DNA from: Chthonomonadaceae bacterium
GTDB taxonomy: Bacteria; Armatimonadota; Chthonomonadetes; Chthonomonadales; Chthonomonadaceae
Length of the DNA stretch: 39,208 nucleotides
Direction: 5' to 3'
Assembly: GCA_035650735.1 (NCBI GenBank)
Contig: DASRGZ010000017.1
Coordinates: 62,001 to 101,208, forward strand
Part shown: positions 3,496 to 36,626 of the stretch, one piece after another
Numbering within the stretch: the first letter of the stretch is position 1
Layout of the letters: each line of letters begins with the position of its first letter
Position numbers and translations under genes: made by a program
Notes under the pieces: model-generated
What the model saw: the letters and a program-made list of their open reading frames with translations, nothing else
What the model was told of the DNA's origin: nothing
The model's database searches: none

Positions 3496-3573
3496 TAGTC
3501 ACAAGGAACTCGGCGCCGAAAGGTGGAACCAGCTTGTTGCCAAAATGTTGAATATCACCCGGTCTGAATCTCC

Positions 3574-3655
3574 GGTAATCCCTCCCAACGGTGTTGACGT
3601 ATCTCCTCAGCAGCAGGCTGCATAAGATTGATCCACACGGCTGGGAGTGTCTACC
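3574..3655. mobile_element. 82-bp MITE, IS1-like ends, copy 1
   Basis: Imperfect terminal IRs GGTAATCCCTCCCAACGGTGT / GGTAGACACTCCCAGCCGTGT; 8-bp direct repeat GAATCTCC at 3566-3573 and 3656-3663; near-identical copy at 30497-30578. Confidence 0.85.
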
Positions 3656-17874: not shown

Positions 17875-19345
17875 CGTGCATATAGCCTTTCCTGATAATC
17901 TTAGCGAGCGTGCCCGGCAAGCAATGCGGGAAGAAGGTTTTGAGCCGGATATACCTACAGAGGCAATACAGCAGGCCCAAGCGGAAGTAGAGAGTGATGT
18001 CGTTCTTCCTGCCAAGAGTGCTGTGCGTGATCTACGCGCCCTGCGCTGGTCCTCGATTGATAATCCAGAGTCGCGTGACCTGGATCAGATTGAAGTTGCA
18101 GAACGTCTCGCAGATGGTAACATTCGCGTGCGTGTAGGCATTGCCGACGTAGATGCCTTTGTGCCGGTCGGCTCCTCTATGGATGCCCATGCGAGAGCAA
18201 ATGCCACCACGGTCTATACCGGTGTGGTGACTTTTCCCATGCTGCCGGAAACGCTCTCAACGGATAAGTCCTCCCTGCTGGAGGACGTGGATAGGCTGGC
18301 TCTCATCATTGATATGGTAGTTACGGAGGAAGGAACCCTCGCCTCCACCGATATGTATCGAGCCGTTGTGCATAACTATGCTAAGCTCGACTACGAGACG
18401 GTGGGGGCATGGTTAGAGGGGCATGGGGATATGCCGGAGGGCGTAGCGCGTGTGGAGGGAATGGAGGCGCAGCTTCGTCTTCAGGATCAAGCCGCGCAGC
18501 GCCTATTAGCACAGCGACAGAAACAGGGCGCGCTGGATCTGGAAACGATAGAAGCCGTGCCCGTCGTGGAGAACGGCCAGGTGACCAATCTTACCGTCCC
18601 CCGTAAGAACCAAGCGCGCGCCCTGATAGAGAACCTGATGGTATCGGCCAATACAGCTATGGCCGCCTTTCTGGAGGCAACGGGCTTGCCCTTCATTCAA
18701 CGGGTCGTACGGTCGCCGGAACGTTGGCCTCGGATTATGGCGCTTGCCCAGAGTCTAGGGGAAAGCTTACCGGATCAACCGCATGCACGGGCGTTGTCCG
18801 AGTTTCTCGCCCGCCGCAAGGCTGCCGACCCTGTCCATTTCCCCGATCTCTCGCTAGCGATTGTCAAGCTATTAGGGCCGGGAGAGTATGTCGTCATGGG
18901 AAGCCTTGACGAAGCTCAGGGGCACTTCAGCCTGGCGGCCTATCGCTATACGCACTCGACGGCTCCAAACCGGCGTTATGCCGACCTGGTCATCCAGCGC
19001 CTTTTGAAAGCCGTGCTCACTCATGCTGCCGCGCCCTATAGCCGCACGGAGCTAGACCAGATAGCCCAGCACTGTACAGAGCGTGAAGATGCCGCTCGTA
19101 AAGTTGAGCGAAAGATGCGCAAGGTAGCGGCTGCCGTTCTCATGCGCGGGCGGATTGGCGAAGAGTTTGATGCCATTGTTACCGGTGTATCGGCCAAAGG
19201 GGTTTTTGTCCGAGTGGTAAATCCCCCCATTGAAGGGCGTGTGGTCGAGGGAGAGCAGGGCATGGATGTTGGGGAGAGAGTGCGCGTGCGCCTGGTAGCT
19301 ACCGATCCAGACAGGGGATATATTGATTTTGCGCGAAATGAGTGA
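17867..19345 (+). CDS. RNB-domain ribonuclease (RNase II/R family, short form)
   Basis: SIDNPESRDLDQ, VGIADVDAFV, LIENLMVSAN, YTHSTAPNRRYADLVIQRLLK, C-terminal S1; start codon uncertain (17846/17867/17870). Confidence 0.9.
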   Translation: MMAVHIAFPDNLSERARQAMREEGFEPDIPTEAIQQAQAEVESDVVLPAKSAVRDLRALRWSSIDNPESRDLDQIEVAERLADGNIRVRVGIADVDAFVPVGSSMDAHARANATTVYTGVVTFPMLPETLSTDKSSLLEDVDRLALIIDMVVTEEGTLASTDMYRAVVHNYAKLDYETVGAWLEGHGDMPEGVARVEGMEAQLRLQDQAAQRLLAQRQKQGALDLETIEAVPVVENGQVTNLTVPRKNQARALIENLMVSANTAMAAFLEATGLPFIQRVVRSPERWPRIMALAQSLGESLPDQPHARALSEFLARRKAADPVHFPDLSLAIVKLLGPGEYVVMGSLDEAQGHFSLAAYRYTHSTAPNRRYADLVIQRLLKAVLTHAAAPYSRTELDQIAQHCTEREDAARKVERKMRKVAAAVLMRGRIGEEFDAIVTGVSAKGVFVRVVNPPIEGRVVEGEQGMDVGERVRVRLVATDPDRGYIDFARNE

Positions 19346-20741
19346 GACGAAAGAGCCGTTCTCCGAGCGGCGCAGGCTGATGACCGTGCGCCAGGATGTG
19401 GTAGAGGTGGCCCGGCAAATCCGCGCGAACCTTATGCCGGAGAGGGCAGAGCAACTCCGTTACATCTTGCAGGAAGTTCACCCCGCCGACCTCGCCGACG
19501 CCATGCTGTTCCTGAGTGAGCAGGAGGATGCGCAGGTATTCAAAGCCCTCGACACAGCAGAGGCCGCCGAGGTTCTGGACGAGGTGGATGCCACGACAGA
19601 GGCCCGTCTGGTCAAAATCACCAGCCCCGACCGTCTCGCCGACATCCTGGAAGAACTTCCTCCGGACGAGGGGGCCGATGTCGTGGGCGGGCTGCCGCAA
19701 GACGCCGCCGAGCGCGTGCTCACCCTCACGGATAGAGAGACGGCGCAAGAGATCCGCACCCTGCTCGCCTATCCGAAGGACACCGCAGGCGGCATCATGT
19801 CGTTGGGTTACGTGGACGTGCCGGAAACGGCAACACAAGCCGAGGCCATCGCGCGGTTCCGGGACAAGCAAGAGGCCGACCCCATCTTCTTCCTTTATGT
19901 CGTGGACGCGCAGGGCCGTCTGCTCGGGGCGGTGGACCTGCGGACGCTGCTCTCGGCCAGCCCAACGACGCCGGTACGGGAACTGATGCGCGAAGAGGTC
20001 GTGACCGTCACCCCAGAGTGCGACCAGGAGCAGGTCGCCAACGTGTTCGCCCGGTACGACTTGACCGCCCTGCCGGTGGTCAGCGGCGCGCCGGAGAGCA
20101 AGCTGCTGGGCGTGATTACCCCCGACGACATCATTGACGTGATCCAGGAGGAGGCGACCGAGGATGTCGCCCATATGTCGGGTTCCGATGCGCAGGAGTT
20201 GGAGAACAAGACCCCGGCGCAGGTGGCCAAGCTACGCCTGCCCTGGATCATGGCGACGATGTTCATCGAACTGCTGGCGGGTTTCGTCATCCACTATTTC
20301 GACTCGACTCTGACCAAGTACATCCTGCTGGCCTCGTTTATGCCGATCATTTCGGCCATCTCCGGCAACACCGGCTTACAGTCCGCCGCCATCATCATCC
20401 GGGGGTTATCCACAGGGCACGTCCAGCTCGCCCATTGGAAACACGCCGTCCTGCGCCAGTTGACCACGACGGCGCTGCTGGGCGGGGCGTGCGCCCTTGT
20501 CCTGGGAACCATCGGGGCCGTCTGGGACAAGCACTTGGTGTTCGGCATGACCGTTTTTTTGGGCATGTTTCTGGCGGCCAACATCGCCGGCATCGTTGGA
20601 ACCGTTGTCCCTCTTCTCTCTAAGCGGGCAGGTTTCGATCCGGCGCTTACGGCAGGCCCCTTTGAAACGGCGTTTCAAGATGTGGTGGGCATCAGCATCT
20701 TCCTCAGCCTGGCGGCCCTTTTGCTCCACTGGCTCCATTAG
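19338..20741 (+). CDS. mgtE: Magnesium transporter MgtE
   Basis: HPADLAD N-domain, YPKDTAGGIM, CBS pair, RLPW, ISAISGNTGLQS, DPALTAGPFETAFQDVVG. Confidence 0.95.
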   Translation: MSETKEPFSERRRLMTVRQDVVEVARQIRANLMPERAEQLRYILQEVHPADLADAMLFLSEQEDAQVFKALDTAEAAEVLDEVDATTEARLVKITSPDRLADILEELPPDEGADVVGGLPQDAAERVLTLTDRETAQEIRTLLAYPKDTAGGIMSLGYVDVPETATQAEAIARFRDKQEADPIFFLYVVDAQGRLLGAVDLRTLLSASPTTPVRELMREEVVTVTPECDQEQVANVFARYDLTALPVVSGAPESKLLGVITPDDIIDVIQEEATEDVAHMSGSDAQELENKTPAQVAKLRLPWIMATMFIELLAGFVIHYFDSTLTKYILLASFMPIISAISGNTGLQSAAIIIRGLSTGHVQLAHWKHAVLRQLTTTALLGGACALVLGTIGAVWDKHLVFGMTVFLGMFLAANIAGIVGTVVPLLSKRAGFDPALTAGPFETAFQDVVGISIFLSLAALLLHWLH

Positions 20742-22790: not shown

Positions 22791-25700
22791 CTATCCTGGC
22801 GCTGTCAGCGGGAGTTCAGCCTCTCTGAGCTGCGGAGTCGCCGGCGCTGACGCGGGGCGGGGAAGGGCGCGGCGTGCCTGAGGCGCAGAAAGCACCGCCC
22901 GTGGAGGCGGCAACCGCCGGAAGGCTTGAAGCAGTCCCAGAACCGCCGTGGGCGCCCCGACAGCGACAACCCAATCGGCCAGGGAGAGAGGGGTGGTGCC
23001 CAGCAGCCGTCGCAGTGGGGGAAGCGTTACCGCGCCGACCTGAGCAGCCGTGGAGAGGCCCACGCAGGCGGCCAGATAACGGTTGGGCAGTGCGGGCGTT
23101 TCCATCCGGTTGGAGGGCTCGGAGCGGCAGGCGAGCGCGTAGGCGATCTCGGCCATGGTGAGGGTGGTAAAGGCGGCTGTCCTGGCGCGCGTCCCCGGGC
23201 CGTAGCGGCCCAGGCCCCACAGGTAGCTGGCGAGGCTTGTTGCGGAGAGGGCGGCTGCGTCCCAGGTAATCGTCTGCCACAAAGAGCGGGTGAGCAGCGG
23301 TTCCTGGGGAGGACGCGGGCCGCGCTGCATGACCTGGGGGTCTGCCGGCTCCATCGCCAGCGCCAGGGCCGGGAAGATATCGGTGACCAGGTTGATCCAG
23401 AGCAGTTGGAGGGCCGTCAGGGGAGGCGGGCGTCTCAGGAGCAAAGCGGCGCCCACCAGGGCGATGTCGCCCAGGTTGGAGCAGATTAAGAACCGGAGCG
23501 CCTTGCGGATATTGGCAAAGAGCGTCCGCCCGTGGCCGACAACGGCGGGCAGGCTCATTAAGTTATCGTCCAGCAGGATCACGTCCGCCAGATCCCGGGC
23601 GATCTGGGTACTGCGCATGCCCAGAGTGATGCCCACATCGGCGGCCCTGAGGGCCGGCGCGTCATTGATGCCGTCCCCCGTCATCATCACCACATGCCCC
23701 TGTTCCTGCAGCAGGCGCACGATCTCGTATTTATGTTCCGGGGTGACCCGCGCCAGGACATCCGGCAGCGGCTGCCCACCCGCCAGGCACTCATGCACCG
23801 CAGCCGCCTCCGCAACCCGCAGGCCATCCTTCTGACCCAGCCTAATGCTGCGCCCCACGGCTTCGGCCGTAACCCGTTGGTCTCCGGTGAGCATGAGGGT
23901 CCGAATGCCCGCCTCCGCAAGCCGCTCGATGGCTTCCCCTGCTTCCGCGCGAACCGGATCTTCCATGCCCACCAGCCCGATCCATTCCAGTCTGCGGTAG
24001 CCCGCGTGCCAGGTTTCCCCGGGCCCCAGAATACCATGGGCCAGCCCCAGGACACGCAGCCCGCGCGCCGCCAGCCGCTCGTTCCTGGCACGGATAGACT
24101 TCCGGCGTCGGGGCGTCAGCGGCAGAGAGCCTGATCTGGTTTGCTGATGGGAGCAGAGCGCCAGCACTTCCTCCGGGGCCCCTTTGACAAAGACCTCGGA
24201 GCTGCCGCCCAGATTGTGATGGATAGAGACCATGTAGTTACGGCCCGGCGCGCGCTCCTGGAGCTCATGCAGGACAAGCTCGGCCTGCAAGCGTCCCACA
24301 TCCACGCCTGCCGCCACAGCCGTCAGCAGCAGCGCCTTTTCTGTCGGGCTGCCCACGGCATCCCACTCGCCTGTGGGCAGGCGATGCAGCTCCGCCTGGG
24401 TGCAGAGGGCTCCCGTTTGCAGCGCCATCAGCAGCAGCGGCTCCTCCGCAGCAGAGAGAAGCTGCCCCTGCCGGAAAAACCGGATGTCATCGCGGGTGAT
24501 GGCCCCTGCGACCTCCGTCTCTTCCCCCTCCAGCACAAAGCACCGGATGCGCATACGGTTCTCGGTGAGGGTGCCGGTCTTGTCAGCACACAGAATGGTG
24601 ACGCTGCCCAGCGTGGCGACAGCCGGCAGACGCCGGATCACGACATTTTGGGCGCGCATCCGCTTCATCCCCAGCGCCAGGGTCAGCGTGGACACCGTAG
24701 GCAAGCCCTCCGGGATAGCGGAGACGGCCAACGACGCGACAAGGGCCAGGATTTCGAGGGCAGGCAGTCCAAAGAGGAGCCCCAAGACTCCGAACACTGC
24801 GCAGATGCCCATAGAGCCCAGGGCCAGGGTGCCGCCAAGCCGCTCTAAGCCCTGGGTCATCGGCGGCGGCCCGGCAGGCACCCCTCCGATCAGGGTGCGG
24901 ATTCGGCCTAACTCGGTGGACAGGCCCGTCGCCGTCACGAGAGCGGCCCCCTTGCCGGAGGCCACGGCTGAGCCGGCATAGACCATGTTGGCGCGCTCGG
25001 CCAGCGGAACCTCTGCCTCCTCGAGCGGGCCGGCCTCCTTCGCCTGTCCCGCCGTCTCGCCCGTCAGGAGCGATTCGTCCATCACGAGGTTATCCGAGCG
25101 CAGAACACGCCCATCCGCGGCGACGACGTGGCCCGGTTCCAGCAGCAAGATATCCCCCGGCACCACCTCTTCAATAGGAATTCGGACCCTGCGGCCCTCG
25201 CGCAGCACACGGGCATGGGGCGTGCGCGTCTGCCGCAAGGATTGGATCGTCCGCTCCGCATAATCTTCGGTAAAGAAGCCGATAGCCGCATTGAGCAGGA
25301 TGGCGCCGCCGATGAACAGCGCATCGGTAATGGCCCCCATCCAGGCAGAAAGGGTGGTTGCGGCGGAGAGCAGCAGGCTCGGAAGGGAGAGGAATTGCTC
25401 CTGAAGGATGGCCGCGCGGGGCCGGCGTGGGATATCCGGCACCTCATTGCGGCCATAGTGCTTAGTCCGCAGGGCGACCTGTTGGGCCGTAAGCCCGCGA
25501 TCCGGGATCGTCTCCAGGTGTTGAGCAACGGTCTCTATCGTCCAGGTATGCCAGGGTAAGGCAGGAACCGCCTCAGGCTCTCGGTCTCCGGCAGGCGCAG
25601 AGGCCGATCTACGGCGCGACACGCTCTGCGCGCCCGCCGACGCCGCTCTCTCTCGGGCCGGCCTTGCGGCCCGCTGGTTGTGCGGACTGTGGCTTCGCCT

Positions 25701-26018
25701 GGAATTTCCAGCATCCGTCGGAAGGGCAGGAAGTTGGGGTCGAACGGTCTTTGCGTCCGCGGGCATTGGCAGTCCCGAGGTGAGCACAGCCTCGATAACG
25801 CGCTTGAGCGCCGGAACGCCGGTAGCGGCAGGGTCGTAGAAGACCAGCACGCTTCCCGTTATCCGGTTCAGCTCTACGCTATCAACTCCGGCCGCCTGGC
25901 CAACCCGGTCTGCGATCTCTTGGGCCAGCGTCGGCGAGGTCTTGAGGGACTGGATCCGAAAGCGCGTTCGTCCGGGTATGACATCATGCGCCACAATGAC
26001 TTCCCTTGGGGCAGGCAT
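22791..26018 (-). CDS. Type II (Ca2+-like) P-type ATPase with N-terminal HMA2-like domain
   Basis: DESLLTGET, AIPEGLP, CADKTGTLT, VKGAPE, MLTGD, TGDGINDAPAL, LWINLVTD; N-terminal PGRTRF...GVDSVELNRITGSVLVFYD lacks CxxC. Confidence 0.93.
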   Translation of the reverse strand: MPAPREVIVAHDVIPGRTRFRIQSLKTSPTLAQEIADRVGQAAGVDSVELNRITGSVLVFYDPAATGVPALKRVIEAVLTSGLPMPADAKTVRPQLPALPTDAGNSRRSHSPHNQRAARPARERAASAGAQSVSRRRSASAPAGDREPEAVPALPWHTWTIETVAQHLETIPDRGLTAQQVALRTKHYGRNEVPDIPRRPRAAILQEQFLSLPSLLLSAATTLSAWMGAITDALFIGGAILLNAAIGFFTEDYAERTIQSLRQTRTPHARVLREGRRVRIPIEEVVPGDILLLEPGHVVAADGRVLRSDNLVMDESLLTGETAGQAKEAGPLEEAEVPLAERANMVYAGSAVASGKGAALVTATGLSTELGRIRTLIGGVPAGPPPMTQGLERLGGTLALGSMGICAVFGVLGLLFGLPALEILALVASLAVSAIPEGLPTVSTLTLALGMKRMRAQNVVIRRLPAVATLGSVTILCADKTGTLTENRMRIRCFVLEGEETEVAGAITRDDIRFFRQGQLLSAAEEPLLLMALQTGALCTQAELHRLPTGEWDAVGSPTEKALLLTAVAAGVDVGRLQAELVLHELQERAPGRNYMVSIHHNLGGSSEVFVKGAPEEVLALCSHQQTRSGSLPLTPRRRKSIRARNERLAARGLRVLGLAHGILGPGETWHAGYRRLEWIGLVGMEDPVRAEAGEAIERLAEAGIRTLMLTGDQRVTAEAVGRSIRLGQKDGLRVAEAAAVHECLAGGQPLPDVLARVTPEHKYEIVRLLQEQGHVVMMTGDGINDAPALRAADVGITLGMRSTQIARDLADVILLDDNLMSLPAVVGHGRTLFANIRKALRFLICSNLGDIALVGAALLLRRPPPLTALQLLWINLVTDIFPALALAMEPADPQVMQRGPRPPQEPLLTRSLWQTITWDAAALSATSLASYLWGLGRYGPGTRARTAAFTTLTMAEIAYALACRSEPSNRMETPALPNRYLAACVGLSTAAQVGAVTLPPLRRLLGTTPLSLADWVVAVGAPTAVLGLLQAFRRLPPPRAVLSAPQARRALPRPASAPATPQLREAELPLTAPG

Positions 26019-26141
26019 GTCACCCTGTGTTCCTTTGCATGTGAATTTGGGCCAACAGGTCGGATATTAACGGTTACGCCCCTGGGGGCAGGCATGTTAC
26101 CGGGTGTTCTTTTGCATGAATTATTTTCCGATTTTGACCAC

Positions 26142-26969
26142 CTACTTAGACGCGGACTGGTCTTTACCCTTTGCCGCCTCGCCCTCTTTTGGATCGCGTT
26201 GCGTGTGCAGCACATTCATCAGCGCAGACATGAGCGCGCCCGCCGCGCACGGGCCGACGACATAGATCCAGACGGTATCCATTGCGCCGCCCACAATCGC
26301 GGGACCGAGCGACCGCGCCGGGTTCATGGAAGCGCCGCTGATCGGCCCGGCGAACAGCCCGCACAGCGCGATGGTGCCGCCGACCGCAATCGCAGCGTTC
26401 GGCCCGACCGAGCTGTAGCGCGTCGCCGTGCCTAGAATGGCCGTCAGCAGGAAGCAGGTCAGCACAAACTCCATCACGAGGCCGATAAGGACGCCCTGAT
26501 GCGGGATGGTTGCGCCGACGTGCTTGGCCGGCCCGAAGAGCCCAAGCAACAGCAGGGCCGCCAGCACCGCGCCCGTGATCTGCACCAGCCAGTAGCCGGG
26601 CGCCCGCCGCCAGGGAAAAGCGCCGCGCAGCGCGAAGCCGAGCGTCACCGCCGGGTTGATATGCATGCCCGACGTGTCGCCGAGGGCGTAGATAAGCGCC
26701 ATGATAGCAAGGCCCGGCGCAACGGCCTTCGCGGCCTCGCTCACCTGGCCGTGGCTTACGGCGCCGATAACCTCGCCGCCCGCCGCGACGAACGTCAGCA
26801 CGAACGTGCCGAATAGCTCGGCGCACAGACTGCGCCAGAGCTCCGGCTCGTCGTGCCGATCCTTGACAGGCGCTTGCGGTTTGGGCTCAGGCGCCCGCGC
26901 GTTGTCCTCTTGCCCATGTCGGTCTTCCGGGGGCTCGGGAACGAGCGCCTCATGCAGCTTCGTTGCCAT
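26142..26969 (-). CDS. Aquaporin (MIP family)
   Basis: AELFGTF, SGMHINPAVT and SGASMNPARSLGP (two NPA motifs), six TM helices; RBS GAGGAG. Confidence 0.95.
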   Translation of the reverse strand: MATKLHEALVPEPPEDRHGQEDNARAPEPKPQAPVKDRHDEPELWRSLCAELFGTFVLTFVAAGGEVIGAVSHGQVSEAAKAVAPGLAIMALIYALGDTSGMHINPAVTLGFALRGAFPWRRAPGYWLVQITGAVLAALLLLGLFGPAKHVGATIPHQGVLIGLVMEFVLTCFLLTAILGTATRYSSVGPNAAIAVGGTIALCGLFAGPISGASMNPARSLGPAIVGGAMDTVWIYVVGPCAAGALMSALMNVLHTQRDPKEGEAAKGKDQSASK

Positions 26970-27387: not shown

Positions 27388-27834
27388 ATGGAACCGTTTG
27401 AATGGCTCTTACTTGGCGTTGGCTTTCTCGTGGGCAACCTGGTCGGTTCTCGGGGCAAGGGGCTGGTCAAATCGGCAGCCAAAGGCTACCTGATCGTGGA
27501 AGAAAAGACCAAGGAATGGACGGCCAATCTACGCGAGGATTTCAACGATGCCGTCGAAGAGGCCCGTTATGAGCGCGAGCAGGAGATGAGCCTGCGGGAA
27601 GAGGCCGGTACCCCGGCGGCCCTGGAGGAAGAGCCGGTTGAGCAAGCAGCGCCCGCAGCGGCCAAGTCGCCCTCCCGTAGCCGCGCCACCCGCGCGACGG
27701 GGGCGCGCTCTACTGGTAAGGGACGCGCCTCCTCGGGACGCAAGCGGGCTGGGGCGGAGCCTTCTGCCACGGCCACCCGCACCGAAGGCCCCTCTGCCGG
27801 CGCCGGTGAAGGAGGCACTCCTGAACCGGCATGA
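27388..27834 (+). CDS. DUF5132-like small protein
   Basis: N-terminal TM then GLVKSAAKGYL..W.ANLREDFNDAVEEARYE, resembling proteins found beside HMA2/P1B ATPases; low-complexity tail; RBS GAGGAG. Confidence 0.6.
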   Translation: MEPFEWLLLGVGFLVGNLVGSRGKGLVKSAAKGYLIVEEKTKEWTANLREDFNDAVEEARYEREQEMSLREEAGTPAALEEEPVEQAAPAAAKSPSRSRATRATGARSTGKGRASSGRKRAGAEPSATATRTEGPSAGAGEGGTPEPA

Positions 27835-27981: not shown

Positions 27982-29649
27982 ATGAGAGGCATGCAAGCAT
28001 CCACGCCATTTCGTATCGCCTCCGCATTTCCGGGGCGTATTCGCCTTCAGTTCGCTCCTGCTTACGGAGACAATGGACGTCTGCGGGCGTGCGCGGATCG
28101 TGTGGCAGCGCTGGCCGGGGTGCAGGCTGCCCAAGTCGTTCCGGAGGCCCGCAGTGTCATCGTGCGCTATGTCCCCACGCAGCGGCAGCTTGAGTCCGTG
28201 CTTGATCTGATCCAACGGATAGCCATAGAGAGCGCGCGTCTGCCTGTAACGAGGCAATCCCGGAGCCGTGATGCCGGCACAGCGAGCGCCGCGATTCTCT
28301 CCACGGATTCCCGGCGGGCGCTCAAGCGCGCGGCCTCCCCGGCGTCACAGCAGCGCGAAACCCTCTCTACCAGGAATCTGGCTCAGGAAAAGCCGCGTGG
28401 CCTCAAGGCTCTGTTCCTGCCCTCGGTGGCGGTCGCATTCGCCGCCACAGAACTGTTTCCGGTGGCGGTGACCGGAGCGCTGTTAGCGATGGCCGTCGTT
28501 CCCATCGCGCAGCGCGCCGCCAGAGGCGTCCGCCGGCGCCAGGTCACAACGGATGAGCTAGACCTGGCAAACATAGCGCTGTTGGCTTTGCAGGAACGTT
28601 TTTTGACTGCGAGCGGTATTGCCTGGCTCATCAGCCTGGGGGAATTTATCCGGGGGCAAATTATCCGCTATTCCCGTCAGGAAGCCGCACGCCAGGCATT
28701 TGCGGCGGGAATGCGAGCCGGGGCCAACGCAGAGGAGGCTCTGCCGCAGGCGCGTGCAATGGTCGAGCAGATCGCAAACGCGCCTCTCTCGGATACCACC
28801 GTCTATCAAAATTCCGTTCAAGTCGGGGATCGCCTGGCCTATCCTCTCTTTGGCGTGGCCGCCCTGGGCCTGCTCTTGCGGCGCGACCCGCGCAATTTTA
28901 TTGGGATCATCAAGCCGGGACGCGATTTCGCCTCTGCGATGCGTTTTGGCGCCCCGATGCCGGTCTTGAGCGCCATGACGGCAGGGAGCCGCCAGGGAGT
29001 GCTGATCCGGCGGGGAGAAGCGGTGGAAAGACTGGCGCAGGTAAACGCGGTCGTGTTCGTCAGCCTGGAGGCGACAGGGGAGAGAGAGACGCTGCCGCGT
29101 GTGGTGGAGGGACTCCTGGAGCGCGGCGTTACGCGCTTTGTCCTGCCAACCCAGGAGTCGGCGCGCGTTGCGCAGGCGGCCTCAGCCCGTTATGGCCGGC
29201 CCGATGTCCTTGTCGAAGCGCTCTCTACGGAACCGACCGAGGTTGTGCAGCGTCTACGTGATCAAGGGCATATCGTAGCGGTAGTCATCAATGGCAGGCA
29301 CGGGCGGGAGAGGCTCCCTGCGGCGGACGTGACTATCTCCCTCACACCGGAGGGAAGAGACACGCAGGACGCCGACATCCTCCTGACCGGCAGCCTCGAA
29401 AGTTTGCTGCCGGTCATAGATGTTGCGCGCGAGGCGATGGATATTCTCCAGCAGAACACGGCTATCGCCGCAGGAGCGTCTGCCTTCAACCTGGCGACGG
29501 CGCTGTTGAGAGTAGGGCCTCCGCCGCTGTCCACGCTGATCAATACGAGCACGGTAGCAGCGATTGGGATAAACGCGCTGCGTCCGCTCCGTGGCGGCTC
29601 TGCGGTTCGAACGCCTGCGCCACGCCGCTTGCTGCCGGCGCCCACATAG
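27982..29649 (+). CDS. Degenerate P1B-type ATPase homologue (HMA2 + membrane domain + vestigial P domain)
   Basis: PGRIRL HMA2 domain; GVLIRRGEAVERLAQVNAVVF followed by VSLEA instead of DKTGT; no TGE; GDGxND replaced by INGRHG; REAMDILQQN and INTSTVAAIGINALRPL retained; RBS CAGGAG. Confidence 0.82.
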   Translation: MRGMQASTPFRIASAFPGRIRLQFAPAYGDNGRLRACADRVAALAGVQAAQVVPEARSVIVRYVPTQRQLESVLDLIQRIAIESARLPVTRQSRSRDAGTASAAILSTDSRRALKRAASPASQQRETLSTRNLAQEKPRGLKALFLPSVAVAFAATELFPVAVTGALLAMAVVPIAQRAARGVRRRQVTTDELDLANIALLALQERFLTASGIAWLISLGEFIRGQIIRYSRQEAARQAFAAGMRAGANAEEALPQARAMVEQIANAPLSDTTVYQNSVQVGDRLAYPLFGVAALGLLLRRDPRNFIGIIKPGRDFASAMRFGAPMPVLSAMTAGSRQGVLIRRGEAVERLAQVNAVVFVSLEATGERETLPRVVEGLLERGVTRFVLPTQESARVAQAASARYGRPDVLVEALSTEPTEVVQRLRDQGHIVAVVINGRHGRERLPAADVTISLTPEGRDTQDADILLTGSLESLLPVIDVAREAMDILQQNTAIAAGASAFNLATALLRVGPPPLSTLINTSTVAAIGINALRPLRGGSAVRTPAPRRLLPAPT

Positions 29650-29657
29650 GAAACCTG

Positions 29658-30164
29658 ATGAGGATAGAGAAGACAAAGCCCGTAAAGTCGTCTGCGCGGC
29701 CTCGCCCCGTCCGGCCTGAAGCCGAGCTCAAGGCGCTCCTCTGGCCGGTAATCAAGCGGCTGCCCACCTACATCCGGCTGGGTTGGGCGCTCCTCCGGGA
29801 GCCGGCCATCGCCCATCGGCATAAGGCACTGCTATATGCGGCGATTGCCTACAGCGTGACGCCCGCGCATCTGGTGCTCAGCCCGGTCCCGGTGCTGGGA
29901 CAGATAGATAACATTGTGCTCTTGTTCCTGGGCTTACAGCAGGCGTCTGCCCATTGTCCGCCCGAAGTGCGCACGCGTCATCTGGCTCGCCTGAAGCTGG
30001 CCCCCACGCAACTAGACCGCGACCTGCATACCCTCCTCTATGTTGCCTGGCGCGCGCTCGGAAAGGTGGGCCGTCCTGTGGGCAGCAACCTGCGCTTTGC
30101 CGGGCGGGTTATGCGGGGCTTCAGCCGCCGGGTGCTCAAGCGGCTGGCAGGGAATGAGGCGTAG
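29658..30164 (+). CDS. DUF1232/YkvA family protein
   Basis: KALLYAAIAYSVTPAHLV..PVPVLGQIDNI matches a diverged Y.xxP.D.IPD.IPVLG.xDD pattern. Confidence 0.75.
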   Translation: MRIEKTKPVKSSARPRPVRPEAELKALLWPVIKRLPTYIRLGWALLREPAIAHRHKALLYAAIAYSVTPAHLVLSPVPVLGQIDNIVLLFLGLQQASAHCPPEVRTRHLARLKLAPTQLDRDLHTLLYVAWRALGKVGRPVGSNLRFAGRVMRGFSRRVLKRLAGNEA

Positions 30165-30181: not shown

Positions 30182-30448
30182 ATGGATCCGATTTCAATTT
30201 CAATTGAGCTAGAACTGGGCGCTCTGCTAATAGCGGCCGTCGGTGCGGTCGCCACCTGGCTGCACAACCGGCACCACAAGGCCAATCGGAGGCAGCGTGA
30301 ACGTCATTATCGGCAAATGCGGGCGCAGGAGGAACGCCATCACCGCGAACGTCTGGCTGCCCTGCACACCGAACGCGGGATAGAGCGCAGCCTGGAGACG
30401 ATGGCGAGCGCACCTAAGAGAAGATCGTCGAACAGCTCGACAGGGTAG
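30182..30448 (+). CDS. Small single-TM hypothetical protein, His/Arg-rich
   Basis: Strong RBS GGAGGAGG; TM LGALLIAAVGAVATWL; then HNRHHK..ERHY..ERHHRE. Confidence 0.65.
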   Translation: MDPISISIELELGALLIAAVGAVATWLHNRHHKANRRQRERHYRQMRAQEERHHRERLAALHTERGIERSLETMASAPKRRSSNSSTG

Positions 30449-30496
30449 CGCGCAATTAAGCAGAATTTTGCGTTTTGTTGAGATAGCTCCTATCTC

Positions 30497-30578
30497 GGTA
30501 ATCCCTCCCAACGGTGTTGACGTATCTCCTCAGCAGCAGGCTGCGTGAGATTGATCCACACGGCTGGGAGTGTCTACT
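30497..30578. mobile_element. 82-bp MITE, IS1-like ends, copy 2
   Basis: 79/82 identical to 3574-3655; direct repeat CCTATCTC at 30489-30496 and 30579-30586 (extendable to 10 bp). Confidence 0.85.
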
Positions 30579-30630
30579 CCTATCTCATCGCAGAGTGTAA
30601 ACTCGCGCTTAACAGAGCACTAGCCTGGGC

Positions 30631-30740
30631 CGTCTCGCTCAGAGGACTTACGATGGACCTAATGCCACGCCCTTTCTGGGTAGGGGTTGGCGACGGGGGG
30701 CGCGTCTCGCTCAGAGGACTTACGATGGACCTAATGCCAC
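30631..30740. repeat. Perfect 38-bp direct repeat with 34-bp spacer (CRISPR-like geometry)
   Basis: CGTCTCGCTCAGAGGACTTACGATGGACCTAATGCCAC at 30631-30668 and 30703-30740. The repeat is certain; its CRISPR nature is not. Confidence 0.9.
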
Positions 30741-31246
30741 TTACCGATGGGGCTGATCTGGTGCGCACGCGCTCTCCGATAGCTTATACGGAGGCCGAGC
30801 AGCAGTTCAGTCTATTCATGCAGCGCAAATTGCACCGTCTGCTGCGTGGGGCCGAGAACAACTTGATCCTCATGCGCCGCTACTGCCAGGACAGGCCCGA
30901 AGTCGCCTTCTTTTTGCCGTCTCGGATAGAGAAGCAGCAGATTCGCTGTCAGGTGGCGGAAGGGATCGTCCAGGGTGTCCTGCGGTTCCTGGATCCATTT
31001 GCTCCGGGCGGCCCGATAGCTCAGCAGGTTCGCTCCGACCGGCTGATTGAGATCCAGACGTTTCCGACGCAGTATCCGCATATTGTCGTCGAGCGCACTG
31101 ATGTCTTCCAGAGGCAGAGTGGGCAGTGCCTCTACATCGAATGGCAGGCCGTCCGTGTGCAAAACCAGCGCAAATCCACGCTGGTCAACCGGGCGCTGGA
31201 TATAGCCAACCTGGGCCTGGAGCTTGTCAGGTTCATTCGTCCCTGA
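30725..31246 (+). CDS. Hypothetical protein (173 aa; alternative in-frame start 30653)
   Basis: RBS AGAGGA plus ATG inside each repeat copy; open frame with protein-like composition; no family recognised. Confidence 0.7.
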   Translation: MDLMPLTDGADLVRTRSPIAYTEAEQQFSLFMQRKLHRLLRGAENNLILMRRYCQDRPEVAFFLPSRIEKQQIRCQVAEGIVQGVLRFLDPFAPGGPIAQQVRSDRLIEIQTFPTQYPHIVVERTDVFQRQSGQCLYIEWQAVRVQNQRKSTLVNRALDIANLGLELVRFIRP

Positions 31247-31545: not shown

Positions 31546-31827
31546 CTAATCGTTGTCTTTGGCGCGGGCTTCCCCGCCCTTGCGGCCGATCTCAGCCATA
31601 TGCTCACGGTCTTTGCTGACCTCTTCGCCGCCCTTGCGACCGGCCTGGGCATGACCTTGCGGGTCGCCATGCCAGCCACGGCCTTCGCCCTCGCCTTCGC
31701 GATCAGAGTGCGCTTTTCCGTGACCGCCGTGGGAAGCTTCCCCGCCTTTACGGGCGATCTCACGCCGCTTCTCCTCGTCCATGGAGGCAAAGCCGCGCTT
31801 GTCATCACTACTTTTCTTGTCTGCCAT
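31546..31827 (-). CDS. KGG-repeat general stress protein (GsiB/YciG-like)
   Basis: RGFASMDEEKRREIARKGGEAS, GRKGGEEVSKDREHMAEIGRKGGE. Confidence 0.92.
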   Translation of the reverse strand: MADKKSSDDKRGFASMDEEKRREIARKGGEASHGGHGKAHSDREGEGEGRGWHGDPQGHAQAGRKGGEEVSKDREHMAEIGRKGGEARAKDND

Positions 31828-34143: not shown

Positions 34144-34470
34144 CGGCTTTTCTGCGGCCATTCTAGGCAGGCTGGGGCGCGCTTCCCTCCCGCCCGGAGG
34201 CCCCGGAACACCGGATTTGCGCCCGACGTATTACTATATAATAATCCAAATTGATAATATTTGCGCGATACTGCGTTGCTGTTGCCTCCGCGCGCTGCCC
34301 GGAGCGCCCTCCTGACGCACTCCCGTCGGCAGGGCCGACAAAACTCGGAAAGCCGGCGGCGGATAGGTTGTGAAAAGGCGCACTCTTGCCGATAATGCAA
34401 AGCGCGCCCGTGACGGCGACCCGGCCCACAAGGCGGCGCCGCGCGCATGGCGAAGGGAGAGACACACGAT

Positions 34471-35697
34471 ATGCCCTCGGAAACGATCCGCCTGGACGGA
34501 CATATCATCGACTCGCTGACGCTGTCGAAGGTGCTGGACATCATCCTGCGCGACGGCGGGCAGTATAAAATTAGTGATTTCGACATCGGCCAGACCCGCG
34601 CCGACGTCAGCCACGCCGAGATCGTCGTCAGCGCCCCCGACATGCCCACTTTGGAACACATTTTGCATGTCGTACAGCAGCACGGCGCGACGCGCGCTGC
34701 CGGCGAAACCTGCACGGAGCCTGCCCCCGCCGACGGCGTGTTCCCGGAAGGCTTCTACGCGACCACTAACCTCGAAACGGCGGTGCGCTACGCAGGACGC
34801 TGGCTCCCGGTCGAGAACATTGAGATGGACTGCGGGATTGTCATCGAGGGGCAGGGCGAGCAGGCCCGCGCTCGGTGCGTGCCCGTCCATCGTATCCAGA
34901 AGGGGGATGCGGTCGTCGTCGGGGATCGGGGCGTGCGCGTGACGCCGCTGGAGCGGCGCAACCCGATGGACCCCTTCGCCTTCATGGGCAGTGAGGTCTC
35001 CTCCGAGCGGCCCAAAGAACTGGTCGTGGCCGCCATTGCGCAGGCCATGCGGGAGGCGCACGCCGCCGGGCAGAAGGTGCTGTTTGTGGGCGGACCGGCC
35101 ATCCTGCACACCGGCGCGGGGCACTACCTGGAGGCGATCCTGCGCGCGGGCTGGATAGATGTGCTGTTTGCGGGCAACGCCCTGGCGACCCACGATATTG
35201 AGCGCGCCCTCTACGGCACCTCGCTGGGCGTGGACCTGGCTTCCGGCGTCCCGATGGCGCACGGCCATGAGCATCATCTGCGCGCCATCAATCGAATTCG
35301 CGCGGCGGGCGGCATCCGGCAGGCCGTCGAGCAAGGCATCCTTACGTCCGGCATCATGCATGCCTGCGTGACCAGCGGGGTGGACTACGTGCTGGCCGGC
35401 AGCATCCGCGACGACGGCCCGCTGCCCGACGTGATCACCGATTCCGTGCTAGCTCAGGACGCCATGCGCGAGCGCGTGCGCGGCGTGGGCGTCGCCATCA
35501 TGGTCGCCACGACCCTGCACTCCATCGCCACCGGCAACCTGCTGCCTGCCTCCGTCCGCACCGTCTGCGTCGACTCGGACGCCGACACGGTGATCAAATT
35601 GATGGACCGGGGAACGCATCAGGCGTTCGGACTCGTTACAGATTGTGAGTTCTTTTTAAAGGAGCTTGCGGCCCGTCTTCCGGGGGTACTGCTATGA
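34471..35697 (+). CDS. TIGR00300 / LOR-SDH conserved-domain protein (ornithine cyclodeaminase-like, C-terminal part of AgrE/ArgZ)
   Basis: LDGHIIDS, DGVFPEGFYATTN, EMDCGIV, FAFMGSEVSSERP, GPAILHTG, GNALATHDIE, LAGSIRDDGPLPD, LHSIATGN, KLMDRG. Confidence 0.88.
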   Translation: MPSETIRLDGHIIDSLTLSKVLDIILRDGGQYKISDFDIGQTRADVSHAEIVVSAPDMPTLEHILHVVQQHGATRAAGETCTEPAPADGVFPEGFYATTNLETAVRYAGRWLPVENIEMDCGIVIEGQGEQARARCVPVHRIQKGDAVVVGDRGVRVTPLERRNPMDPFAFMGSEVSSERPKELVVAAIAQAMREAHAAGQKVLFVGGPAILHTGAGHYLEAILRAGWIDVLFAGNALATHDIERALYGTSLGVDLASGVPMAHGHEHHLRAINRIRAAGGIRQAVEQGILTSGIMHACVTSGVDYVLAGSIRDDGPLPDVITDSVLAQDAMRERVRGVGVAIMVATTLHSIATGNLLPASVRTVCVDSDADTVIKLMDRGTHQAFGLVTDCEFFLKELAARLPGVLL

Positions 35698-36626
35698 CAC
35701 AGACTCATTTGCCCCATTTGAACTTACTGGCGCCGGCAGCCGGCGGATCGGCCTCTGCGGCAATAGCGGAGCCCACGTCGGCGACCGCACTGCCGCACCC
35801 AGGAACGACTCCGGAAGCGGCTTCCCATGCGCAGCCCACGCGCCTGCTGATGTGCGCGCCGACCGCCTACGCGCTCAAGTACGAGATCAACCCCTGGATG
35901 TCGCTGCAAAACACGCCGGATGTGGACCTGGCGGCGGCGCAGTGGCAGGCGCTCTACCGCGTGCTGACGGAGGAGGTCAGCGCGGTGGTGGAACTGGTGC
36001 CGCAGGCTCCTGAGTGCCCGGATATGGTCTTTACGGCCAACGCCGGGCTGGTGCGGGGCCGCTACGTCATGCTCTCCAACTTTCGCCACCCGCAGCGGCA
36101 GGTGGAGGAGCCGCATTTCCGCGCCTGGTTCGAGTCGCACGGCTACAAGGTGCAGTCGCCCTCGGTGGGCTGTAAGTTCGAGGGGGAAGGGGATGCGCTG
36201 TTTGCGGGCGATATGCTGCTGGCAGGCTACCTCAAGCGCAGCGACATCTGCGCCCATCGCTGGCTCTCCGAGATGCTTGCCGTGCCCGTCCTGTCACTGG
36301 AGCTGATTGACGACCGCTGGTATCACCTGGATACCTGCCTGTTCCCGCTGACGCCCGATACCGTCGTCTACTATCCCGGGGCGTTCGATCCCTATGCGCG
36401 CGTGGTCATCGCCAACAATTTCCACACCATCGAGGTCTGCCAGGAAGAGGCGCTGCGCTTTGCCTGCAATGCCGTCGTCATCGGTGCGCACGTCGTCCTG
36501 CCGGCGGGCTGTCCGCAACTGACTCAGGAGTTAGAGTCGCGCGGCTATATCGTCCACAGCGTCAACCTCTCCGAGTTCCTCAAGGCGGGCGGTGCTGCCA
36601 AGTGCCTGACGCTGTTCCTGCGCTAG
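35694..36626 (+). CDS. Amidinotransferase-superfamily protein, ArgZ-like arginine dihydrolase domain
   Basis: LMCAP..Y.LKYEINPWM, PDMVFTANAG, FEGEGD, YHLDTC, FACNAV, EFLKAGGAAKCLTL (catalytic Cys); ATGA overlap with the upstream gene. Confidence 0.85.
   Translation: MTQTHLPHLNLLAPAAGGSASAAIAEPTSATALPHPGTTPEAASHAQPTRLLMCAPTAYALKYEINPWMSLQNTPDVDLAAAQWQALYRVLTEEVSAVVELVPQAPECPDMVFTANAGLVRGRYVMLSNFRHPQRQVEEPHFRAWFESHGYKVQSPSVGCKFEGEGDALFAGDMLLAGYLKRSDICAHRWLSEMLAVPVLSLELIDDRWYHLDTCLFPLTPDTVVYYPGAFDPYARVVIANNFHTIEVCQEEALRFACNAVVIGAHVVLPAGCPQLTQELESRGYIVHSVNLSEFLKAGGAAKCLTLFLR

Follow-up and report, generated by a model that had tools for sequence, protein, structure and literature searches.

A conserved P1B-6-like pseudo-pump without actuator and nucleotide-binding domains in a Chthonomonadaceae bacterium

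Kinases and proteases include familiar examples of pseudo-enzymes. A literature search for a stand-alone, conserved P-type pseudo-pump devoid of both the actuator (A) and the nucleotide-binding (N) domain found no description of one; the CoBaHMA family paper and the ferrosome FezH supplements lay outside its scope and may bear on novelty. The closest precedent is provided by CtpH and CtpI of Mycobacterium tuberculosis, called uncharacterised in the available part of PMC10654040, in which an HMA2-led, catalytically degenerate P-type module is coupled to an active P2 pump, the two being fused according to the available part of PMC13460109. The protein described here is a P1B-6-like pseudo-pump encoded at 27982..29649 (+) of the window (the whole stretch of 39,208 nucleotides that was analysed), and it consists of an HMA2/CoBaHMA domain, a membrane helix bundle and a degenerate P domain, without A and N domains. 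In CtpH/CtpI the degenerate module is part of a fusion and, judged by inspection, still has regions resembling A and N, whereas the pseudo-pump stands alone with both excised; its gene and that of the neighbouring P2A pump are separate and divergently transcribed, ~2 kb apart. A profile of the pseudo-pump family matches CtpH/I-like proteins of 1.6 kaa (E 2e-18 to 3e-18), one of them in genome G408, and two such proteins were the only fused longer forms found in what was a weak search. The match to the fused module is confined to HMA2 and, weakly, P, which suggests that the degenerate module of CtpH/CtpI probably had a separate origin. The G408 protein (L094:1-4845; 1.6 kaa, CtpH/CtpI-like), in which a degenerate HMA2-led module is joined to a P2 pump, occurs outside Actinobacteria.

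The ferrosome pump FezB (P1B-6; available part of bioRxiv 2020.01.10.902569) resembles the pseudo-pump in its R-rich N-terminal domain, in the D[FY] position of M4 and in sharing an operon with a GxxxG protein. In the pseudo-pump the R-rich (RxR) element takes the form PGRIR, with R19 and R21 in 95% of the 21 core members of its clade, and a gene for a GxxxG protein accompanies four of the six copies recovered from genomes. Unlike FezB, it lacks the catalytic motifs, D[Y/F]SCA in M4 (DFASA instead) and HNxxT in M6 (INTST instead), and DYSC-type pumps fall outside its clade. The PacL-CtpC/CtpG effluxosome, in which PacL uses its EA repeats to bind the N-terminal domains of pumps (available parts of PMC13043812 and bioRxiv 2021.10.01.462712), offers a second likeness: the gene of a small transmembrane protein with a glycine motif and an E/A-rich helix precedes that of a P1B-6-like pump whose N-terminal domain has no Cys. 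The partner is a DUF1490 protein there and DUF5132-like here, none of ten relatives matching DUF1490 or DUF6110 and three matching DUF5132; the available parts of the same two papers yielded no catalytically dead pump. Two cyanobacterial dead P1B paralogues annotated as 'HMA2 domain-containing protein' (WP_100903846.1 and MFH7030015.1) also have neither catalytic Asp nor N domain, and the gene of the Nostoc paralogue lies near DUF5132, HMA2 and cax genes. They differ in keeping a region of A-domain length; MFH7030015.1 (P0157) sits in another clade, and WP_100903846.1 is outside the tree. The absence of the catalytic and P1B-6 motifs, despite a P1B fold and an R-rich/GxxxG context, argues that the protein is a pseudo-enzyme derived from P1B-6-like pumps and not a member of a pump family.

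Frame, lost domains and predicted fold

The pseudo-pump gene is a stop-free frame of 555 aa with AGGAG 5' of its ATG. Its HMA2/CoBaHMA domain (28003..28236, +; residues 8-85, SAFPGRIR) has Ser where the family has His. The basic residues on strands b1/b2 by which CoBaHMA (HMA_2) domains are defined in the available part of PMC8890360 are present as R19 and R21, and the His on strand b0 is replaced by Ser in 90% of the 21 core members. Ser14 was ruled out as a dead-specific trait, since the intact pumps of genomes G260 and G278 carry the same Ser-type first domain. The Pfam HMA_2 match is weak (E 0.072), and the assignment draws support from the PGRIR motif, the predicted model and homologues with strong HMA_2 matches. 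Pfam E1-E2_ATPase and Hydrolase gave no match on the protein, and the NCBIfam P1B models match it only under their cut-off (61 versus 313 bits).

The 821-aa intact pump of G008, a genome of the same family, aligns to the pseudo-pump as three blocks with gaps between them. From the GExxR anchor in M2 to APLSD there are 47 residues in the pseudo-pump against 123 in the intact pump (-76), so the A domain with its TGES motif is gone, a short linker (28678..28746, +; ~76 residues gone) standing in for it; the sole SGEA match, in P0059, sits in the P domain. VSLEA aligns at the place of DKTGT (29059..29073, +) and is directly followed by the second deletion, of ~124 residues: 14 residues lead from the DKTGT position to the second half of the P domain, against 138 in the G008 pump (-124), so the N domain is gone as well. 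INGRHG aligns at the GDGxND place (29287..29304, +), where the intact motif reads GDGIND. Without A domain, N domain or an aspartate to phosphorylate, the protein is unable to run an ATP cycle.

An AlphaFold2 model (24-row alignment; pLDDT 87.4, pTM 0.76) comprises an N-terminal alpha/beta domain, a bundle of helices and a P domain of small size. The model can be superposed on P1B pumps (391 residues of 7r0g_B, with Z 27.6 and an rmsd of 3.3 A; Foldseek against 7r0g_A: E 1.8e-9), and the ESM Atlas returned P1B look-alikes only (0.88-0.91). An earlier note on this DNA had described an open 555-aa frame with a ribosome-binding site, VSLEA in place of DKTGT, the loss of the TGE-bearing actuator, of the N domain and of GDGxND, and the retention of HMA2, transmembrane helices and P-domain scaffold; the alignment bears out the losses, and the comparison with a P1B ATPase that it had proposed, together with the evidence for HMA2, agrees with what it took to be kept.

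Family, tree and selection

A phmmer search of 1.84 billion representatives gave 1290 matches, of which the best 150 were looked at, and 145 sequences were aligned (130 proteins of >=395 aa, namely the query and matches, 11 genome-derived proteins and 4 outgroups). The search that the earlier note had called for, for homologues with the same deletions, was productive: A and N are both absent from 31 of the 145. N alone is absent from seven, and five full-length sequences lack the catalytic Asp motif only. The dead forms grade from point-dead through N-less and A/N-less to A/N/P-less, with P0004 and P0053 having lost most of the P domain as well. One of the 31, the C-terminally cut P0075, was left out of the tree for gaps, and the tree was built on shared columns in the quick mode of IQ-TREE from 75 rows picked from 138. 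Among the 30 double-deletion sequences placed, 26 form one clade (SH-aLRT 95; two long branches are flagged as unsure), which is sister to eight intact pumps (SH-aLRT 99), whilst the other four fall among other lineages. A single origin of all 30 was rejected on the quick tree (p-AU 1e-36), from which it follows that, as read from these sequences, the same double excision arose independently at least twice in the P1B-6-like tree.

Clade members are 28-48% identical to the pseudo-pump, and DKTG or GDGxN is kept in none of the 26. Internal stops are absent from all six genome-derived copies, and all 15 codon pairs show the fewest differences at second and the most at third positions (p2<p1<p3). 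Omega=1 was rejected in all 15 (2dL 54-166), where dS is saturated and 13 pairs lie at the divergence bound, so that the omega values are unusable as numbers, and the terminal branch is not covered. Root-to-tip branches are ~3x longer in the dead clade than in the intact sisters (1.51 versus 0.51), and constraint is relaxed on this account; the codon-position pattern is that of purifying selection on the family, with relaxed constraint. Mean identities in the dead core (21 sequences) and the intact sisters (8) are 0.32 and 0.35 for HMA2, where the sister value mixes first and second domains, 0.39 and 0.52 for the N-terminal TM region, 0.40 and 0.77 for M4, 0.39 and 0.62 for M5-M6, and 0.28 and 0.71 for the second P half, values by which conservation has moved away from the P domain in the dead clade.

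The dead form is rare, being found in 2 of 68 genomes in the class, 3 of 71 genomes of another order and 4 of 401 genomes in a phylum sample with three candidates scored per genome. Neither dead nor intact form was found in G001, a genome of the same genus (89% complete), and a metagenome scan yielded no new orthologue (8 loci, 7 of them weak); metagenome contig L120 is identical to that of the window, possibly comes from the same sample and was left out as independent support. The patchy distribution, the long branches and the continuum of dead forms are what would be expected if a duplicated pump had left a relic that serves no selected function and is slowly decaying, a reading made highly improbable by frames that stay open at 27-50% identity, by the rejection of omega=1 throughout, by residues gained clade-wide and by an architecture with at least two origins. 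The earlier note had held that a full-length DKTGT gene in this place in close relatives, an architecture shared by no other genome and a dN/dS near 1 would together mark a recent pseudogene. The first applies in part, G008, G330 and G368 carrying a full DKTGT pump in the same slot, and the other two failed. Its preference for repurposing over decay is upheld by the architecture common to the 26 members, the six open copies and the evidence for purifying selection at codon positions. A recent pseudogene or an assembly error is ruled out by the existence of the family.

A further set of P1B paralogues lacks the N domain and the Asp and retains a region of A length (P0090, P0128, P0130, P0142, P0157, P0179, P0183 and L128:8890-10881); Heteroscytonema is represented in it, as is a gene on a Nostoc plasmid with cax, DUF454, HMA2 and DUF5132 genes beside it. 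These proteins make up a broader class of dead pumps that evolved repeatedly.

Gene neighbourhood and candidate partners

In the window the pseudo-pump gene is preceded by that of a GxxxG membrane-anchored protein of a DUF5132-like family (27388..27834, +), a PacL/FezA-like scaffold candidate and the sole gene of its family in the genome. The label 'DUF5132-like' given to it by the earlier note holds as a family likeness, through the three of ten aligned relatives mentioned above, and does not extend to a direct match, the protein itself having none. After an 8-bp gap the pseudo-pump gene is followed by a co-operonic DUF1232 gene (29658..30164, +), which is kept in the slot, and then by a gene for a small membrane protein (MDPISI...; 30182..30448, +) that is in the clusters of G306 and G368 too. 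Divergent from these are an intact HMA2-bearing P2A-type ATPase with PEGL, DKTGT and GDGIND (22791..26018, -), the candidate active partner, and, upstream of it, a MIP-family channel (26142..26969, -), a candidate member of the system; the G306 orthologue has a MIP gene in its vicinity as well. In the assembly (G000, 97.6% complete) the GxxxG family is represented by a single gene and HMA2 by two clear proteins, all of them within this 7 kb; no intact sister-type pump was found in the assembly, its five DKTGT pumps all being of other types. A promoter scan gave results at chance level.

Several repeats were observed in the window. An 82-nt direct repeat (98% identical) lies at 3573-3654 and 30496-30577, 26.9 kb apart, its second copy directly after the operon and overlapping the start of the 30545 frame; it is possibly an island boundary or a duplicated promoter. 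A perfect 38-nt duplication (30631-30668 and 30703-30740) covers the RBS and start region of the hypothetical gene at 30545-31246, a homologue of which precedes the G306 cluster, and a 39-nt repeat (87%; 26003-26041 and 26080-26118) covers the start of the P2A gene and its upstream region. Near the cluster lie, judged from their translations by eye, an MgtE-type Mg2+ transporter (19323-20741) and an amidinotransferase-like gene pair (34447-36626), and also a KGG stress protein identified by Pfam (31546-31827).

The slot varies between genomes. G008, G330 and G368, all of the same family, have the same operon with an intact DKTGT pump in the slot and an MntP-family gene. The order is GxxxG-intact-dead-intact-MntP in G260, GxxxG-intact-dead in G278 and GxxxG-dead-DUF1232 in G000 and G306. 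A GxxxG-led operon holds the copies of G000, G260 and G278 and copy C11 of G306; the second copy of G306 (C319) and the A/N/P-less copy of G408 are isolated. The tandem intact and dead copies of G260 and G278 point to a duplication after which one copy was repurposed. Where only intact pumps are present, the GxxxG proteins beside them (L020:12213-13034, L056 and L057) have at least two copies of the DUF5132-like helix; those beside dead copies have one.

All five dead-copy genomes examined also encode an active-type HMA2-bearing pump, which is a tandem intact paralogue in G260 and G278 and an HMA2-P2A pump in G000, G306 and G408. Given the sample of five genomes, with assemblies 87-98% complete, this co-occurrence may stem from shared gene-cluster ancestry alone. 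No intact P1B-6-like pump was found in G000, G306 or G408, and an obligate heterodimer with such a pump was rejected for these three genomes. Orthologues of the window's P2A pump occur in G306 (60% identity) and G408 (57%), and none was found in G260, G278, G008, G330 or G368, the genomes with intact sisters. The P2A gene is on a different contig from the dead copy in both G306 and G408; in G306 it directly follows a second GxxxG gene, and in G408 it has no GxxxG neighbour. The HMA2-fused P2A (PEGL) subfamily (22791-26018 (-); L092, L093 and L097) spans four genomes at 57-60% identity; its actuator motif reads TGET, TGEQ or TGES, and the G306 member has two HMA2 domains.

G049 has the HMA2-P2A pump without a dead copy, and in its slot after the GxxxG gene lie FezC-like HMA2+TM proteins; HMA2+TM proteins without catalytic parts likewise adjoin the pumps of G382 and G391. 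Such occupants of the slot would suit a structural, FezC-like block of a membrane compartment (a ferrosome-like or mineral-storage vesicle) that makes no direct contact with a pump. The use of GxxxG and R-rich proteins by fez clusters (available part of bioRxiv 2020.01.10.902569) and the DUF5132 and CoBaHMA genes flanking ccyA in Microcystis (available part of bioRxiv 2024.07.07.602159) are in keeping with it. A two-helix anchor would do for this purpose, however, which leaves the full bundle and the gained core residues unexplained, and the FezB signature motifs are absent; it is regarded as distinctly improbable.

The membrane site and possible roles

The membrane bundle has been altered in a consistent manner. 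A Lys or Arg is inserted four residues before the M4 acid in 26/26 clade members and in none of the eight intact sisters; in the pseudo-pump this insertion is K311-P312 (28912..28926, +), one helical turn ahead of D315. The acids themselves are kept, D/E315 of M4 and D194 of M1 being present in all 26. Among the 21 core members, P312 and N503 occur in every one and N197 in 18; N503 (29488..29490, +) is a new M5 amide where all eight sisters have G or A. The M5 Pro is lost throughout the core and the M6 ligands decay (N521 in 14/21, N522 lost in 21/21), so that DFASA in M4 and INTST in M6 correspond to DF[AV][TS]G and mostly NNGTT in the sisters. The inserted Lys/Arg likely plugs the ion site, and the i/i+4 spacing of base and acid suggests a built-in cation filling it. 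The lysines of ZntA and KdpB may offer an analogy for such a built-in cation.

The same residues can be read as those of a passive, ATP-independent carrier or leak, in which the Lys-Pro kink in M4, the M5 Asn and the loss of the M5 Pro let a divalent or counter-ion run downhill, for example in release from a storage compartment. The new polar and kink residues, the invariant M4 acid, a P domain that is dispensable in two members and the want of an intact P1B paralogue in three of five genomes are all consistent with this, but the basic residue that every clade member has, one turn away from the M4 acid, would leave the site neutral, and the carrier is less favoured for that reason; the M6 ligands decay, and the actuator is absent. 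In P-type pumps it is the actuator that drives the E1-E2 helix movement. A passive carrier is therefore considered unlikely, and the evolutionary version of it, namely that a P-type pump was turned into an ATP-independent carrier or channel by excision of both motor domains and rebuilding of M4 and M5 (Lys/Arg-Pro, Asn), with the same excision more than once in a P1B-6-like lineage, is given slightly less credence.

The predicted model, compared with HMA4, is closer to E1 (8q73, Z 22.0) than to E2P (8q75, Z 15.2). An E1-like state of this kind, with the M1 and M4 acids kept, would suit a membrane ion sensor or buffer whose inward-open site holds a cytoplasmic divalent ion unmoved and signals to cluster proteins via HMA2 or the P remnant. 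Against it, the clusters have no conserved output domain or regulator, and the HMA2 domain has neither the family His nor any CxxC; this role appears improbable.

The reading preferred here, tentatively and at a little short of even confidence, is that the pseudo-pump is a locked, non-transporting accessory subunit of a DUF5132/PacL-FezA-like platform for divalent-cation pumps. Its HMA2 domain would dock on the GxxxG protein at its acidic helix, in the way CtpC/CtpG do on PacL, a step proposed because PacL binds pump N-terminal domains via EA repeats; a complex prediction of the pseudo-pump (residues 5-540, 24 rows) with the GxxxG protein (70 aa, 10 rows) scored 0.04, the mark being 0.32, a value that speaks neither for nor against contact. 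The inserted Lys/Arg would pair with the M4 Asp, fill the ion site and fix an E1-like membrane bundle, and the locked protein might then organise, stabilise or tune the active pump, that is, the tandem intact paralogue in G260 and G278 or the HMA2-P2A pump here. The ion is probably a hard divalent (Mn2+, Ca2+ or Fe2+), since M4-M6 offer O/N ligands only and the neighbours are of the MntP family and PEGL type, with Cax in a cyanobacterial relative. Several points count against an accessory subunit: the partner differs (P1B in two genomes, P2A in three), which is at odds with one obligate heterodimer, G049 and the three genomes that have intact copies only manage without a dead copy, and the gained polar residues N197 and N503 suit an ion pathway equally well.

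Current annotation masks the class as 'cation transport ATPase', 'HMA2 domain protein' or 'hypothetical'. The family is a natural 'membrane domain only' P1B scaffold with which to ask what the bundle does without its motor, and it may account for the unexplained degenerate half of CtpH/CtpI. It points to an uncounted class of non-catalytic subunits in PacL/Fez-type metal platforms.
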